Source: an uncultured Bacilli bacterium
Lineage (GTDB): Bacteria; Bacillota_I; Bacilli_A; RF39; UBA660
Length of the DNA stretch: 64,000 nucleotides
Reading direction: 5' to 3'
Assembly (NCBI GenBank): GCA_934096605.1
Contig: CAKOMI010000002.1
Location: forward strand, 789 to 64,788
Under the pieces are notes generated by a model. That model was given only the letters and a program-made list of their open reading frames with translations. It was not told where the DNA came from and did not search any database. Below are positions 40,347 through 47,692 of the stretch, one piece after another. How positions within the stretch are numbered: position 1 is the first letter of the stretch; the number at the start of each line of letters is the position of its first letter. Both the position numbers and the translations under genes were made by a program.

Positions 40347-40422
40347 TGGCGCTCAATGTAGGACTCGGACCTACGACCCAACGGTTAACAGCCGTTTGCT
40401 CTACCGACTGAGCTAATTGAGC
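40347..40422 (-). tRNA. tRNA-Asn (anticodon GTT), CCA encoded
   Basis: The reverse complement folds as a cloverleaf: acceptor GCTCAAT/ATTGAGC, D stem GCTC/GAGC, anticodon stem AACGG/CCGTT with loop CT-GTT-AA, T stem GTAGG/CCTAC, discriminator G, CCA. A terminator hairpin aaaccca-tta-tgggttt lies downstream at 40317-40336. Confidence 0.95.
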
Positions 40423-41129: not shown

Positions 41130-41213
41130 AAATTTCAAAAAAACAAAATCTATTGTAATTCTTAGTATTTTTTTATATAATTAGTACAGATTAAAAGAAT
41201 AGGAAGGTTTTAT

Positions 41214-42197
41214 ATGGATACAAAAAAGGGGAAATTCCGTTCATTTTCTAGCATTGTCAAATTTATATCCGGCGTTTTGTCATGGACTATTCTTGTTATT
41301 CTCGTTATAGTCGCGTGTTTTTTAGTGTATTATTTTGTTTCTGTTAAAGTGTATGCACAAAAAGGTGAGGACTACAAACCTGCCTTTGCCTTATATACAA
41401 TATTATCACCGAGTATGGAACCAAATATTAAAGTGTATGACGTTATCTTTGACGTTAACGTTAATTCACCAGAAGATATTAAAGAAGGCGATGTTATAAC
41501 ATTTGTTTCTACAGCGACTCTTACTAAAGGTATGACAATTACTCATCGTGTTGTAGAAATATTTCATGATGAAAATGGTTATTCATATATGACTAAAGGT
41601 GATAACAATATTCCCAATGATGGAACAGCTGTCCCATATGACCATGTCTTAGGTAAAGTATTATTTAAAATACCTCAATTAGGACGAATTCAAGAGTTTT
41701 TAGGTACTAAAGGTGGTTGGCTAATCGTTGTTGTTATTCCCGCTATTTTAGTTATATTAAGTGATATTTTAAAATTATTTAGATTGCAAGATGCTAAAAA
41801 AGAAGTTGATAATTATGAAAATAAAGAAGCCCTTAAATTAGAAGATATTAATAATAAGAAAAAAGAAATAGCTGAAAATTTAAATGCAAGATATGCAAAC
41901 GTTAAAAAAGATTTAGAAATTAAAAAAGAAACAGAAGAGCCAGTAATAACTGATATTAATGAAGAGTTACCAAAGTTAAACACAAATAATACTATTGAAG
42001 ACAAAGATATAGATTTACCATTAGAGCTACCAAAAATGGTTGATATTCCTAAATTAAAAGATAACTCTAAACCTGTATCTTTAGAATTGCCAAAATTAAC
42101 AAAAGAAGAGCATTCTTTAGATAATATTGAAACACAAGTAAAACCTGTTAAAAAAAATTCAAATAGAAAAAGAACACCAAAGAAAAATAGTAAGTAA
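41214..42197 (+). CDS. sipW: signal peptidase I, SipW (ER/archaeal S26B) type, with long K/E-rich C-terminal tail
   Basis: N-terminal TM. Catalytic Ser box LSPSMEP, ITHRVVEI (His instead of the Lys of P-type SPases), TKGDNN..D, second TM. The tail has repeated (E)LPK(L/M) motifs. Confidence 0.85.
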   Translation: MDTKKGKFRSFSSIVKFISGVLSWTILVILVIVACFLVYYFVSVKVYAQKGEDYKPAFALYTILSPSMEPNIKVYDVIFDVNVNSPEDIKEGDVITFVSTATLTKGMTITHRVVEIFHDENGYSYMTKGDNNIPNDGTAVPYDHVLGKVLFKIPQLGRIQEFLGTKGGWLIVVVIPAILVILSDILKLFRLQDAKKEVDNYENKEALKLEDINNKKKEIAENLNARYANVKKDLEIKKETEEPVITDINEELPKLNTNNTIEDKDIDLPLELPKMVDIPKLKDNSKPVSLELPKLTKEEHSLDNIETQVKPVKKNSNRKRTPKKNSK

Positions 42198-42290
42198 AGA
42201 ACTGTTTAAATTAAAATAGTTCTTTTTTAAATTTTTATTGACAAACGCATGTATGTAGTATATGATAAATTTAATTACTGGAGGTGCTAT

Positions 42291-42605
42291 ATGCCAGAAT
42301 ATTGTATGATTGAAATTGCTTTTGATAATTTAGAACTTCTTAATGAACTTGTAAAAGCTTTATTGTCCCAAAAATTGATTGCCAGTGCACATGTTATAGA
42401 AAGTGCTAGTAGTTGGTTATGGCAAGGTGATAAGGAGCAAGCACATGAATATCTTTTACAAATGAAAACTAAGAAAAAGAATCAATCGTTAATATATGAT
42501 ATAGTAAAAGAAAAACATAATTATGATATTTTTGAATTTGCTGTTTATGATATAAGTAGTGTTAGCAATGATTATTTGAAATGGCTTGATGAGGAAATTA
42601 TATAA
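42291..42605 (+). CDS. cutA: CutA1-like divalent-cation tolerance protein
   Basis: ATG follows ctggaggtg. ..LIASAHVIESASSWLWQGDKEQAHEYLLQMKT......IYDIVKEKHNYDIFEF....I......YLKWL matches the CutA pattern (..S.Y.W.G.i...E..l..KT....l...i...HpY..pe). Confidence 0.7.
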   Translation: MPEYCMIEIAFDNLELLNELVKALLSQKLIASAHVIESASSWLWQGDKEQAHEYLLQMKTKKKNQSLIYDIVKEKHNYDIFEFAVYDISSVSNDYLKWLDEEII

Positions 42606-42676
42606 ATTAATATTTTATATGTGAGTTGTGCATACTAAAATAAATGTTATTAAAGATAGTAAGGAGTACAATAATT

Positions 42677-43057
42677 GTGAATCAGATAACTAAAAATAAT
42701 TTGAGTCATTTTATGAATTCTTATCATTATTTTCATGATAGTTATATAAAAGATATTAATTATAAGTTGGAACAAGATGAAATAGATATTTTAATATATG
42801 TTTTTTGGTCTTTTGAACCAGTGCTAAAGGATAATAATTTAATTGAAACAAATAAAACAAAATTAAAAATGGTTTTTAAGGGTATTAAAGAATACAAAGA
42901 AGATAATAGGTTTAGTGACTATATAGATGAAGCAATTATAAAATACGTTAAAACGAATAATAGAGAATATATACAATTTGCTAGTGATGAAACGGAAGCA
43001 GTATTTTATGTGGTTTGTGATAAAATTGAATATGAAGAAATTAAATGCAGTTGGTAG
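42677..43057 (+). CDS. hypothetical protein
   Basis: ORF with uncertain start (GTG 42677 or ATG 42713). No family recognised. Confidence 0.4.
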   Translation: MNQITKNNLSHFMNSYHYFHDSYIKDINYKLEQDEIDILIYVFWSFEPVLKDNNLIETNKTKLKMVFKGIKEYKEDNRFSDYIDEAIIKYVKTNNREYIQFASDETEAVFYVVCDKIEYEEIKCSW

Positions 43058-43242
43058 TATATGGTTATGAAATATTTGGTTAATGTAAAAATTATACTTT
43101 TTAAGATATAAAAATTTGCTATTGTAAAGTATGTAAATAATATATATTGACGAAGAATTAAATAGAAAGTCAACTTGTTCCATTTTGGAACAAGTTCAAG
43201 TAGAGGGAACTTGAGGTGTAAAAAGGCAAAGGGAAAATTTTT

Positions 43243-43372
43243 GCTAAAAAAGCAAAACAAAAAGCAGAAAGTGAATATGAAAAATACAAAATTATATAAG
43301 TTAAAAAGATTTGTTTCTGATTTTGATAAATTAATAATTGAAACACAAAAGATAGATAATAATCAGAAATAA
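43243..43372 (+). pseudogene. possible RhuM-family gene 3' remnant (frameshifted)
   Basis: One frame reads AKKAKQKAESEYEKYKII*. The next frame continues KLKRFVSDFDKLIIETQKI... Together they resemble the RhuM C-terminal signature (..AE.EYEKY....Q......SDFDK.I..). No upstream body of the gene is present. Confidence 0.3.
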
Positions 43373-43417
43373 TTACAAGATAATTTTAATTTGGCTTAAT
43401 GGTAGTTATTTTGAAAA

Positions 43418-43452
43418 GTAAAATTTGTGATTTTTGTTCGTGTAAGTTCATT
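43418..43452 (+). repeat. motif copy R0 (gtaaaatttgtga...ttcgtgt..) upstream of the uvrB 5' fragment
   Basis: Shares gtaaa(a)tttgtg + ~8 nt + ttcgt[ag]t with R1 and R2. Confidence 0.4.
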
Positions 43453-43562
43453 ATTAGCCACCATAATAAAATATTACTTATGTAAATTACACGAATCACA
43501 TTACAAGATTATACGAATTTTTAGGCTAATACTAAACATAATAATAGAAAGGAAGTGCGATT

Positions 43563-43832
43563 ATGTTTGAATTAGTATCAAAATATAAACCAAGTGGTGA
43601 TCAACCACAGGCTATTGAAAAGTTAGTTGAAGGAATTAATGAAGGAAAAAAAGAACAAGTTTTATTAGGAGCGACTGGAACTGGTAAAACTTTTACTATG
43701 GCTAATGTTATAGCAAAAGTAAATAAGCCAACTTTGATTCTTGCTCATAATAAGACTTTAGCAGGGCAACTTTACAGCGAATTTAAAGAGTTGTTTCCAA
43801 ATAATCATGTTGAATATTTTGTTTCTCATTAT
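43563..43832 (+). repeat. 270-bp direct duplication, copy A (uvrB start)
   Basis: See 45746-46015. The offset is exactly 2183 nt. Confidence 0.9.
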
Positions 43833-43901
43833 AGTAACACCCCAAAAACCATTTTATTTCAAATCCTTTTAGGTTTATTTAATCCCTTGAAAATATCATA
43901 A
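43563..43901 (+). pseudogene. uvrB: displaced uvrB 5' fragment (first ~90 codons) fused to unrelated tail
   Basis: nt 43563-43832 align without gaps to 45746-46015. They are identical for the first ~210 nt, then differ by a few synonymous changes. After ..HVEYFVS the reading frame diverges ([12 protein letters not shown]). Confidence 0.85.
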
Positions 43902-43930
43902 AAAGACTAAATAAAACTAAGTAATAAAAT

Positions 43931-43968
43931 GTAAATTTGTGGTTGGAATTCGTATCCATTTGTGTCCA
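43931..43968 (+). repeat. motif copy R1
   Basis: gtaaatttgtggttggaattcgtatccatttgtgtcca. Its first 12 nt are identical to R2, and both end in gtgtcca. Confidence 0.5.
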
Positions 43969-44096
43969 AGATAAATATATATCTAAACTTACTTATCTAA
44001 TCAGTTTTTTTGTGTTTACTTTGTCGTGCAGAGGTAGCGTGGTAGATTGAAAAATAAGAATATGATATAATAATTTTATATAGGGAGGAATTATAT

Positions 44097-45620
44097 ATGG
44101 TTTCAAATGAATTATTACAAAAAGGCGTACCAACAAAATTACCTTTACCAGTCGAATTAAGTGTTGATGATTTAATAAATATTTGTAAAAATACCAAAAA
44201 TTTGAAAGAGCAAATTGAGAATGCTGGTCAAAGATTTTATGATTTAATTTGTAATATATGTGATAAAAAAACAGCAGATTTTTTTAAATTAAAGAGATTG
44301 GATAATCTAGAAGTTTTTATAAATGAAGAAACATTAGAAAAAAAATTAATTGTTTCTGCTTCTAATATTTTTAATAGAATTGCAGATTTAACTAATGAAT
44401 ATTCTATTAGATATTATGATTTTAGTGCAATTAATAAAATTATAGAGAAATTAAAAACAATTAGTGAAGATGAATTAAAAAGAGATTATCCATATTTATA
44501 TCAATATTATATAGATGAAAAACAACAAGTAATTGTATTAGTGTCTATGAAAGAAAATTTAAAAAAGATGAATTATTCTAATGTTGTTTCTAGAATTAAA
44601 GTATTGTCAGATTTATATGGATGCGACTATGAAACAATGAAGGATAAAATAGATAATGCTACTATAAATTATAATTATAAAACATTTTTATCTGAATTTA
44701 TTCATATTTTAAATAATTTAAATGGATTATCACAAATATTAGTTACTCCATCATTACAAAAAGGTAATATAGTATATTCAGATATCGATATAGAAATAAA
44801 TGAAGAAGATAGTGAAAAATTAGGTATCTACATCACATATATTTATCAAGAAATGTTAAAATCCATGAAAGCAGAGTACCAACAAGAATACCTATACTAT
44901 ATTTCTGAATATTATTTTGAAAATAGAGAGTTAATTGAACAAAATAAGAAATTATATTCACCATACTTTGATAAAATTATTAGGCTAAAAGATATGTATG
45001 AGGATTATAAAAAAATACTAGTTAATAATCCAAAATTAAGGCTTGTAGATTTTAATCATGATGATTTTGCTGGGATGAATTTATCAGAAGTTGATGAATT
45101 TATGTATGAGTACTTTAAAAGTTTAAATGCAAATTGGGAATTTTTTAAGGATACAAAAATAGATGAAGATACTATTTTAAAAATAAAAAGTTATTATGGC
45201 GATTCTACTATTTTTCCAGAACATGAAGAATTAAAAGAAATTCTAAATAAATTTATAGAAAAAAAGGAATTTTTTGATAGGACTGACCCATATTATAGAA
45301 TTTTAGGGAAAAATACTTTTGATGGCTATATTGGATATATTTATAGTAATGGTACTGTTGTTTTAGAAAAATTTTTTGAAAATTCTGTTACTGGTAAAGT
45401 GGCTAAAAATCAAGCAATATATATAATGTCAATTCAAAATTTTCATACGTTAACGCAATTATCAAAGAATGAAATAATTTCTCAAAAATTATGTAAAAGA
45501 TTTATACATAAAGGCAATTGGCAAGAAAAAATCATTACAGAGATTAATGAAGATAAAGGTAACGCCTTAGTTAATCAGATAGATGCATTTATCGCAGGAG
45601 GAATAATAAAGAAACCATAA
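44097..45620 (+). CDS. hypothetical 507-aa protein carried by the uvrB insertion
   Basis: Strong RBS tagggagga. Long uninterrupted ORF with host-like AT-rich codon usage. No catalytic motif recognised. The C-terminus is ..FDGYIGYIYSNGTVVLEKF....AIYIMSIQNFHTLTQLSKNEI... Confidence 0.7.
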   Translation: MVSNELLQKGVPTKLPLPVELSVDDLINICKNTKNLKEQIENAGQRFYDLICNICDKKTADFFKLKRLDNLEVFINEETLEKKLIVSASNIFNRIADLTNEYSIRYYDFSAINKIIEKLKTISEDELKRDYPYLYQYYIDEKQQVIVLVSMKENLKKMNYSNVVSRIKVLSDLYGCDYETMKDKIDNATINYNYKTFLSEFIHILNNLNGLSQILVTPSLQKGNIVYSDIDIEINEEDSEKLGIYITYIYQEMLKSMKAEYQQEYLYYISEYYFENRELIEQNKKLYSPYFDKIIRLKDMYEDYKKILVNNPKLRLVDFNHDDFAGMNLSEVDEFMYEYFKSLNANWEFFKDTKIDEDTILKIKSYYGDSTIFPEHEELKEILNKFIEKKEFFDRTDPYYRILGKNTFDGYIGYIYSNGTVVLEKFFENSVTGKVAKNQAIYIMSIQNFHTLTQLSKNEIISQKLCKRFIHKGNWQEKIITEINEDKGNALVNQIDAFIAGGIIKKP

Positions 45621-45630
45621 TAATTTATTT

Positions 45631-45669
45631 AGTAAATTTGTGGCTGAAATGTGTGTCCGACGCGTGTCC
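45631..45669 (+). repeat. motif copy R2
   Basis: gtaaatttgtggctgaaatgtgtgtccgacgcgtgtcca. Confidence 0.5.
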
Positions 45670-45745
45670 ATCAAAAAATTTGCTTATAGTTAAGTATTAA
45701 GACACAAATTTGATGGTTGATATTGTTCATAATAAGGAGGTCATT

Positions 45746-46015
45746 ATGTTTGAATTAGTATCAAAATATAAACCAAGTGGTGATCAACCACAGGCTATTG
45801 AAAAGTTAGTTGAAGGAATTAATGAAGGAAAAAAAGAACAAGTTTTATTAGGAGCGACTGGAACTGGTAAAACTTTTACTATGGCTAATGTTATAGCAAA
45901 AGTAAATAAGCCAACTTTGATTCTTGCTCATAATAAGACTTTAGCAGGGCAACTTTATAGTGAGTTTAAAGAGTTGTTTCCAAATAACCATGTTGAATAT
46001 TTTGTATCTTATTAT
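45746..46015 (+). repeat. 270-bp direct duplication, copy B (start of intact uvrB)
   Basis: See 43563-43832. Confidence 0.9.
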
Positions 46016-47692
46016 GATTATTATCAGCCAGAAGCATATGTTCCATCAAGTGATACTTATATTGAAAAAGATTCTTCAATAAATGATGAAATAGATGAAT
46101 TACGTCATGCTGCAACAAGTGCTTTAATTAATTATCAAGATACAATAGTGGTTTCTTCCGTTTCTTGTATTTACGGTATTGGTGAAAAAGAAGAATATAT
46201 CCAAAAGATGCTTATTTTAACAGTTGGTGACAATGTTAGAAGAAATGATATTATAAATAAACTAATTGATATGACTTATGAGAGAAACGATATTGACTTT
46301 AAAAGAGGAACATTTAGAGTTAGAGGTGATATTGTTGATATAGTTCCAGTTAATGAACATACAAGTGGAATAAGAATAGAATTGTTTGGTGATGAGGTTG
46401 ATAGAATAAGCTATTTTGATCCTGTAACAGGGGCAATTATTAAAAGCGTTAGAAGTGTTACAATATCTCCAGCTAGTCATTTCGTTACTAGTGATGAAAA
46501 ATTAAAAGAAGCTATTAAAAGAATTGAAAGTGAGTTAGAGGCTCGTTTAACTGAATTAAAGAGTCAAAATAAATTATTAGAAGAACAAAGACTTAGAGAA
46601 CGAACAAACTATGATATAGAAATGCTTAAAGAAACAGGATTTTGTAATGGGGTAGAGAACTACTCAAGGCATCTTGCTTTAAGAGGTGAAGGTGAAACAC
46701 CAACCTGTTTAATTGATTTTTTTCCTAAAGACTTTCTACTAATTGTTGATGAATCACATGTAACGCTTCCACAAGTAAGAGGTATGTATAATGGTGATAG
46801 AATGCGTAAACAAACACTTGTTGACTATGGCTTTAGGCTTCCTAGTGCTCTAGATAATCGACCACTTAAATTTGATGAGTTTGAAAGTAAGATTAATAAT
46901 GCTATCTATGTTTCGGCGACACCTGGTGATTATGAATTAGAAAAAACCCACGGCAAATATGTTGAACAAATAATAAGACCTACTGGTTTGTTAGATCCAA
47001 TTATCCATGTAAGAGGTTCAGAAGGTCAAATAGATGATATAATTAATGAAATAAGAACTCGTATGGCTAAAAATGAAAGAGTTTTAATAACTACTTTAAC
47101 AATTAAGATGAGTGAAGAACTAACTAATTATTTAAAAGAATTAAATATTAAAGTAGCGTATTTACACAATGAAATTAAAACTTTGGATCGTTTAAAAATA
47201 ATTCATGATTTACGAGCCGGCATTTATGACGTTGTTGTTGGTATAAACTTACTAAGAGAAGGTATTGATATACCAGAAGTAAGCTTGATTTGTATTTTAG
47301 ATGCTGATAAACAAGGATTCTTACGTAGTTCTAGGAGTTTAATTCAAACTATTGGGCGGGCAGCAAGAAATGCAAATGGCGAGGTTATAATGTATGCTGA
47401 TACAATGAGTGAAGCCATGGATTATGCTATTAAAGAAACAAATAGAAGAAGAGAAATTCAATCGGCATTTAATAAAGAACATAATATAATTCCTAAAACT
47501 ATTCAAAAAGAAATAAAAGAAGTTATTACTAATGAGGTTAAAGAAAAAGCCAAAAAGACTAAGATAACTAAAAAAGAGAAAGAAAAAATGTTAGCTGATT
47601 TAGAAAGTGAAATGCGTAGTGCAGCAGCTAATTTAGATTTTGAAAGAGCAATGGAATTAAGAGATATTATTTTTGAAATGAAAAGTGAATAA
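45746..47692 (+). CDS. uvrB: excinuclease ABC subunit B
   Basis: [28 protein letters not shown] (Walker A), DESH box (VDESHVT), helicase motifs, and the C-terminal UVR domain (..[15 protein letters not shown]). ATG 45746 follows aaggagg; the track start 45710 is upstream of the RBS. Confidence 0.95.

Follow-up and report, generated by a model that had tools for sequence, protein, structure and literature searches.

A probable small integrative element at the 5' end of uvrB in uncultured gut Bacilli

A stretch of 64,000 nt from contig CAKOMI010000002.1 (positions 789 to 64,788; here called the window) of an uncultured Bacilli bacterium (RF39, UBA660; assembly GCA_934096605.1) carries the start of the DNA-repair gene uvrB twice, with a single gene, termed cargo gene X, between the two copies. 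The segment 43833-45745, together with the duplicated 270 nt, probably belongs, as a small and non-autonomous member, to a family of integrative elements that use a tyrosine integrase and have their attachment site in uvrB codons 86-91. The proposed attachment site, TTTGTATCTTAYTAT followed across the break by GAT, encodes FVSYYD. This interpretation is based on the architecture of the locus, an insertion-free strain of the same species, a break point shared by many lineages, conserved element arms, and the constant position of an integrase gene in the relatives.

Duplicated start of uvrB and the empty site

A repeat search revealed a single gap-free direct repeat of 273 nt with 98% identity (43560-43832 versus 45743-46015, offset 2183), which confirms the duplication of the first 90 uvrB codons described in an earlier examination of the sequence without database searches (the sequence-only reading). 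Base-by-base comparison showed that copies A and B are identical over uvrB nt 1-212, counted from the ATG, close to the ~210 nt estimated earlier. Six mismatches follow, at uvrB nt 213, 216, 219, 243, 261, and 265 (window positions 43775, 43778, 43781, 43805, 43823, and 43827); similarity is over at nt 271, with complete divergence from there. Five of these differences are synonymous, as had been stated for all of them, but that at nt 265 (CAT versus TAT) changes Tyr to His in copy A. The ORF (open reading frame) of copy A (43563-43901, 112 aa) has an N-terminal ResIII/DEAD match as its sole domain match, and its 3' part is unrelated sequence. Copy B begins an ORF of 648 aa (45746-47692), which encodes UvrB with the complete set of UvrB domains. 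The contrast drawn earlier between a copy running into a foreign tail and stop and one continuing into the full-length gene is therefore correct. The insert is flanked by direct repeats of a target-gene segment, in the manner of attL and attR (43563-43832 and 45746-46015), with uvrB whole on one side. The only ORF between the copies is cargo gene X (44097-45620, 507 aa). The GC content of the DNA around and in this ORF is 19-25%, versus ~29% in its surroundings.

A repeat collapsed or expanded during assembly could mimic such a locus, given that the 273-nt repeat exceeds assembly k-mers and that contigs L050, L060, and L065 break in or near it. Exact matches to the 507-aa X protein, however, were found in 54 sample blocks and exact matches to UvrB in 36, each on at least 19 contigs of 50-200 kb, and the order truncated uvrB - X - uvrB was repeated in 13-17 further contigs. 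Because of this recurrence across samples and contigs, the arrangement is not an assembly artefact. The same order occurs in dozens of independent assemblies and samples, on contigs of up to 119 kb, and the two copies differ at 6 positions and in their flanks. Assembly duplication, which the sequence-only reading had named as a possible objection, thus retains a negligible probability.

The comparison with an insert-free relative, proposed in the same reading, was possible with contig L062. This contig from the same species encodes an identical UvrB protein and the same flanking genes, and has neither X nor the duplication; it represents the empty site. Its uninterrupted uvrB lies behind an upstream region of the copy A type (~93% identical), and copy A therefore holds the promoter of the resident gene. 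The segment preceding copy B (45621-45745, 125 nt) is imported.

Shared break point, element arms, and integrase genes of relatives

A metagenome scan with the left-arm motif GACTAAATAAAAC..AAATTTGTG returned 20 loci, 15 of which comprise uvrB codons 1-90/91, the conserved tail, and the motif, without X. The uvrB stubs form about 10 sequence clusters at <88% identity, corresponding to roughly 10 lineages. Altogether, uvrB is broken at the same codons (ending in TAYTAT) at ~20 loci from ~10 gut Bacilli lineages, with three types of arms. Namely, the break lies directly after TAYTAT (codons 89-90) in all type-1 loci and 3 nt later with the type-2 arm, which is present in L115 and L130 and at L059's second junction; with a third type of arm, from another species, the break is at the same place. 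In every contig that is long enough, an intact uvrB is located 2-6 kb downstream of the stub and is preceded by a right arm of the structure GTAAATTTGTGGCYGAAATGCGTGTCC..CGTGTCCACC...GGACACGAATTT..GGACACGAATTT..TCATAATAAGGAGGTCATT-ATG. At three loci (L122, L127, and L132), copy A ends in TATTAT despite the TACTAT of copy B. The last bases would therefore come from the element, placing the exchange point slightly upstream, within TTTGTATCTTA.

The cargo at this break varies. It includes a 5'-nucleotidase (NT5C) and a GH2 glycosidase (L122, L132, and others); ParA, ParB-Spo0A_C, and a large repeat protein (L127, L119-L121, and L133; the list for L127 reads ParA, ParB, leucine-rich repeat protein, and integrase); DUF3800 (L129); a histidine phosphatase (L130); and others besides. 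Genes for a SpaA-type pilin and a sortase accompany ParA and ParB at the uvrB site in L140 and L143, so that the cargo of this hot spot also includes surface structures. Two contigs show other neighbours of the arm motifs. In L056 (1-1100), a 239-aa gene abuts the left-arm motif, there is no uvrB stub, and X is frameshifted; in L051 (1560-2142), the right-arm motif is followed by a membrane-protein gene and not by uvrB. These neighbours suggest cargo fusion or relocation by recombination at the arm motif.

In L127, the gene immediately upstream of the right arm belongs to the Phage_integrase family (PF00589, E 1.6e-20; HDLRH...LGH...Y), and 127 homologues of it were found. In the relatives examined, comprising L127 and all four further homologue clusters that were looked up (five clusters, homologues at 52-99% identity), the integrase gene is always located directly upstream of a uvrB 5' copy, either restored or truncated. 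The full-length integrase P0064 (344 aa) displays generic Xer/integrase matches only, far below the NCBIfam cut-offs. Single elements with an integrase are present in L134 (stub - ParA fragment - DUF5684 - integrase of 344 aa - uvrB), L139, and L144. Tandem arrays with 2-3 uvrB starts are found as well. The one in L136-L138 has the order stub - ParA - ParB - DUF5684 - integrase fragment - second stub - GH25/LysM - integrase (300 aa) - uvrB, and further arrays occur in L140, L141, and L143. The species of the window provides a case of tandem accretion too: copy B of L059 is itself cut short after TATTATGAT, with a type-2 arm behind it.

The arms of the window element (Table 1) align with those of the integrase-bearing L127 and others. 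The window and the other X-bearing contigs share a conserved block from ~43922 to 45669, edged on both sides by GTAAATTTGTGG and then by two CGTRTCC 7-mers. Repeated 7-mers of this type (CGTRTCC / GGACACG) are present in both arms of the elements and are candidate integrase-binding sites. One of these candidate sites is mutated in the window element: its single inverted site is AGACACAAATTT, as against GGACACGAATTT in the X elements of L050 and L056. The possibility that GTAAATTTGTGG is a LexA/Cheo-type operator, or else a repeat of the genome in general, was rejected; in the window it occurs only at the uvrB locus, as part of the conserved arms. The arm motif had no match in IMG/VR. A phage origin was also rejected, the matches of the uvrB N-terminus in IMG/VR being ordinary full-length uvrB genes.

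Table 1. Features of the uvrB locus in the window (positions in nt; 7-mers and motifs are listed below the arm that contains them).
Feature	Position	Strand	Remarks
Resident uvrB upstream region, presumably driving copy A	43418-43562	+	~93% identical to the region upstream of uninterrupted uvrB in L062
Copy A, uvrB codons 1-90, attL side	43563-43832	+	ORF runs into element DNA, stop at 43901; break codons as in ~20 loci
Core-like sequence at left junction, TTTGTTTCTCATTAT	43818-43832	+	Counterpart in intact gene: TTTGTATCTTATTAT, 46001-46015
Left arm of element	43833-43975	+	Conserved in 12-14 loci with differing cargo
70-nt tail			Left arm
GACTAAATAAAAC	43905-43917		Left arm
GTAAATTTGTGG	43931-43942		Left arm
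CGTATCC	43951-43957		Left arm, direct 7-mer
TGTGTCC	43961-43967		Left arm, direct 7-mer
Cargo gene X, 507 aa	44097-45620	+	Promoter-like TGATATAAT of its own upstream
Right arm with imported uvrB upstream region and RBS (ribosome-binding site), 125 nt	45621-45745	+	Conserved, directly upstream of restored uvrB, in L050, L056, L122, L127, L129, L132
GTAAATTTGTGG	45632-45643		Right arm
TGTGTCC	45652-45658		Right arm
CGTGTCC	45663-45669		Right arm
AGACACAAATTT	45700-45711		Right arm, single inverted site, 2 mismatches to GGACACGAATTT
TCATAATAAGGAGGTCATT	45727-45745		3' end of right arm
Intact uvrB, 648 aa	45746-47692	+	nt 1-~205 of element lineage; remainder identical to insertion-free sister strain
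Homologous-recombination breakpoint in copy B, uvrB nt 198-213	45943-45958	+	Window versus L062 comparison

By analogy with the integrase-bearing relatives, the circular form of the element would carry a promoter, an RBS, and uvrB codons 1-90 beside its right arm. Recombination at the core would strand the host promoter and the first 90 codons on the left as a dead stub, copy A, and fuse the replacement 5' end brought by the element to the remainder of uvrB, giving copy B, so that the gene would stay functional. The idea of an element inside uvrB that brings a replacement 5' end, put forward in the sequence-only reading, is supported by the empty site of L062, the common break at ~20 loci, the conserved arms, and the integrase genes of the relatives. 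The same reading had noticed no recombinase in the element, and a tyrosine integrase is indeed confined to these relatives. An integrase of its own beside the attachment site is found in the elements of L127, L134, and L136-L144 but not in that of the window, which is therefore classed as a non-autonomous or decayed member of the family. It may be a decayed remnant or mobile only with an integrase supplied in trans.

Transfer between species and homologous exchange

The X element of a second species shares 92-95% nucleotide identity with that of the window, where uvrB itself is only ~72% identical. The left stub of this species is a decayed foreign uvrB fragment, in which Walker A is changed to GTRKT, with the same junction and tail. 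Among strains of the second species that carry different elements, uvrB nt 1-270 are 91-94% identical, as compared to 97-99% for nt 271-1080. Also, the first ~100 nt of copy 3 in L136, which is the intact gene, are sharply unlike both stubs and visibly foreign, as is copy A in L050. Sequence comparison thus supports movement of the replacement uvrB 5' end together with the element, as well as transfer of the X element between species.

These data bear on the possibility that the start of uvrB was duplicated in tandem long ago and became fixed, with a gene inserted later and no mobile element involved. Such a history, also raised in the sequence-only reading, would agree with the lack of a recombinase in the window, and L004, where X lies upstream of uvrB without a duplication, is compatible with old vertical inheritance. 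It is, however, contradicted by the variable presence of the insert within one species (L062), by unrelated cargo at the same break in other lineages, by the 92-95% identity of X elements in species with such distant uvrB genes, and by the integrase genes of the relatives, and we regard it as extremely unlikely.

Homologous exchange also appears to have shaped the locus. Copy B of the window and uvrB of L062 differ at 10 positions, all of them at nt 36-198; the following 4049 nt are without a difference. The sudden change between copies A and B, from full identity to a cluster of mismatches, had been attributed in the sequence-only reading to recombination or gene conversion near 43770-43835. 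Recombination is upheld by our comparison; its place is refined to nt 198-213 of copy B, and its nature is homologous rather than that of an integration crossover. An integrase crossover was rejected since the switch falls on the window/L062 breakpoint, which lies ~50 nt upstream of the core. Only the last two A/B differences (nt 261 and 265) fall within the att-core region, and copy B of L059 keeps the copy A states at nt 213, 216, and 243. The switch is thus best read, from these alignments, as a homologous-recombination junction in copy B and not as a site-specific one. In the simplest account, copies A and B of the element-carrying lineage would initially have matched over all 255 nt. A single homologous exchange between strains, ending on the right within copy B (nt 198-213), would then have joined the left part to an L062-like right part, which would explain the abrupt change. 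The arrangement in this strain most likely results from such an exchange between strains rather than from fresh integration.

Several observations weigh against assigning the window element to an integrase-driven family. No integrase or excisionase gene was detected in the insert (43833-45745) or in the whole window, which leaves the mobility of this copy unproven. The integrase genes of several relatives are short (149-233 aa) and may be pseudogenes, next to full-length ones such as P0064 and P0100 (343 aa). No circular form, attP junction, or excision product was observed. Finally, copies A and B within a genome are far more alike than uvrB genes of different species; gene conversion or homologous exchange must hence be a common event, and some of the insertions could be due to homologous recombination.

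In its strict form, the last point would mean that a circular DNA with a captured uvrB 5' fragment was inserted by a RecA-dependent, Campbell-type single crossover, without any site-specific recombinase. In its favour, the homology is long (270 nt). The copies are mosaic, the strain breakpoint at nt 198-213 lies inside the homology and not at its end, and copy 3 of L136 changes from foreign to host-like at ~nt 100. Single crossovers in captured fragments do not, however, account for a right edge of the duplicated segment at the same codon (after TAYTAT) in ~20 loci, ~10 lineages, and three arm types, for cargo flanked by conserved arms with repeated 7-mers, or for a tyrosine integrase that is always located beside the replacement 5' end in the autonomous relatives. 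Homologous recombination accounts for spread and mosaicism but not for the fixed end point. Insertion by this route alone is therefore considered improbable, and site-specific integration by a tyrosine integrase at codons 86-91 remains the preferred explanation for the origin of the element.

The region upstream of copy A may record an earlier event of the same kind. The segment 43418-43562 shows the feature order of the right arms, that is GTAAA(A)TTTGTG, CGTGT.., an inverted ..ACACGAAT present twice, and then CATAATAA..GGA.G..ATTATG. It is probably a diverged right-arm copy, a fossil of an older integration. This would explain why the upstream regions of both copies are diverged but related, as had been noticed earlier and was borne out by comparison of the regions. 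The segment also holds an imperfect inverted repeat (~43424-43446 versus 43486-43504).

Further differences between the window and L062 were observed to the left of uvrB. A YhcG/DUF1016 (PD-(D/E)XK-type) gene, which distinguishes L062 (2397-3624) from the window, is located upstream of the uvrB promoter and flanked by 50-nt direct repeats with GTAAAATTTGTGA, a motif also present in the element arms. The window has one copy of this 50-nt repeat (43410-43450), as if recombination between copies of the motif had added or removed the cassette. The left flank, with genes for a signal-peptidase-like 327-aa ORF, cutA, and a 126/137-aa ORF, is only 85% identical between the window (41153-43304) and L062 (250-2362), despite 100% identity over 4 kb to the right of nt 198; it may be a recombined or hypervariable segment. 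Window positions 42400-43400 are unusually AT-rich (21-24% GC). A lone tRNA-Asn(GTT) gene on the minus strand (40347-40422), 3 kb upstream of the locus, lies between a ParA/MinD-like 345-aa ORF and small ORFs, and no link between it and the uvrB element was seen.

Cargo protein X, known systems, and implications

Searches of Pfam, PHROGs, PADLOC, NCBIfam, and PDB sequences gave no match for protein X. Its AlphaFold models (predicted local distance difference test, pLDDT, of 84.7 for the full-length protein and 83.7 for the C-terminal domain) had no Foldseek match in PDB or BFVD, and tblastn against phage and plasmid collections yielded marginal partial matches only. The X family comprises 55 close homologues, and its C-terminal domain is common to 561 clusters at 50% identity, nearly all of them of ~500 aa. 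The genomes with X are exclusively gut metagenome-assembled genomes (MAGs) labelled uncultured Bacilli, Mycoplasma sp. CAG, or Tenericutes. X is sometimes present in two copies or in tandem, with tandem paralogues in L034, L018, L022, and L037. Most X genes lie outside uvrB, namely upstream of clpB (eight cases), typA (three), gpsA (three), smc, and recA, with no duplicated start of the downstream gene; X is therefore regarded as cargo and not as the mobility function. Decayed X fragments were also seen upstream of clpB in L039 and L042. An association of X with DNA-repair genes, considered since three contexts have X upstream of uvrB and one has it upstream of recA, was ruled out by 44 genome loci with clpB, typA, gpsA, smc, and others. 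A remote relative of X (P0294, 713 aa) possesses an HNH nuclease domain, which is a weak hint at a nucleic-acid-related function.

That X itself brings about mobility, as a recombinase of a new kind or as a homing-type nuclease directed against the conserved YYDYY-coding site, would fit with its lack of any known fold or family, its multi-copy and tandem occurrence in some genomes, and the fusion of one remote relative to an HNH domain. Most elements at the same uvrB site, however, are entirely devoid of X, and most X homologues reside elsewhere and leave the 5' end of the downstream gene single. This role of X is very unlikely.

The closest parallel to the proposed integrase-type element at uvrB is provided by the islands and prophages with dusA-specific integrases (DAI), in which a conserved housekeeping gene harbours a tyrosine-integrase element in its 5' end (Farrugia et al., 2015; PMC4482086). 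DAI islands bring along a 5' end and promoter of their own, the displaced 5' end forms the boundary of the island, promoters exist in either state, and the cargo varies (PMC4482086). The uvrB element likewise replaces the 5' end and promoter of its target gene and belongs to a family with varied cargo. It differs in its target, uvrB instead of dusA, and in its hosts, which are uncultured low-GC gut Bacilli and not Proteobacteria. The uvrB elements also replace the promoter plus 90 codons, including Walker A, and arrays with 2-3 gene starts are common among them. The window element is without an integrase, and the uvrB family is set apart from the DAI family by its target.

SXT/R391-type ICEs (integrative and conjugative elements) integrate in the 5' end of prfC; they are large and conjugative, with a short core and few codons replaced. 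The uvrB elements resemble them in the position of the target but have a size of only 2-6 kb, are devoid of visible conjugation genes, and give rise to a duplication of 270 nt. The prophage e14 and phage 21 in icd of Escherichia coli carry a substitute gene end; after integration, the two copies show scattered differences, most of them synonymous, and are known to recombine with each other. Unlike the uvrB element, they replace the 3' end and no promoter, and the prophage has its own integrase. Cis-mobilizable elements (CIMEs) of the Streptococcus ICESt type are att-flanked, lack an integrase, and occupy the site of autonomous relatives. The window element is similarly without an integrase at the site of its relatives, but one putative binding site in its right arm is mutated and mobilization in trans is hypothetical. 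Tandem accretion, including that in SGI1 arrays, proceeds by successive integrations at a regenerated site.

No report of uvrB as an integration target was found in a literature search of limited coverage. The earlier remark that uvrB is not a classical integration target therefore holds for the literature searched, but not for gut Bacilli, where it is a recurrent, family-specific target. On balance, we favour the view that uvrB codons 86-91, which encode a conserved Tyr-rich stretch at the base of the UvrB beta-hairpin, are the dedicated site of small, undescribed tyrosine-integrase elements that inhabit uncultured gut Bacilli (RF39-like, 'Mycoplasma sp. CAG'). Such elements would replace the promoter and 90 codons, form tandem arrays, and shuffle cargo via a shared 45-nt arm motif, making the uvrB start a cargo hot spot and possibly rewiring uvrB expression. 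Cargo X (~500 aa, >500 clusters, no known fold) could represent a new defence or anti-mobile-element function.

A DNA-repair gene would join the few protein-coding genes, dusA and prfC being the known cases, in which integrative elements target and rebuild the 5' end. The locus would be a natural cargo hot spot that can be mined for accessory or defence genes, including the X family, and would offer a defined pair of attachment site and integrase from organisms without genetic tools. The family would also account for the recurrent 'truncated UvrB' annotations in these MAGs. For the hosts, which form an abundant though uncultured branch of the gut microbiota of humans and animals, integration would leave behind an expressible N-terminal UvrB stub, and a promoter and ATP-binding N-terminus supplied by the element may alter the regulation of nucleotide excision repair.

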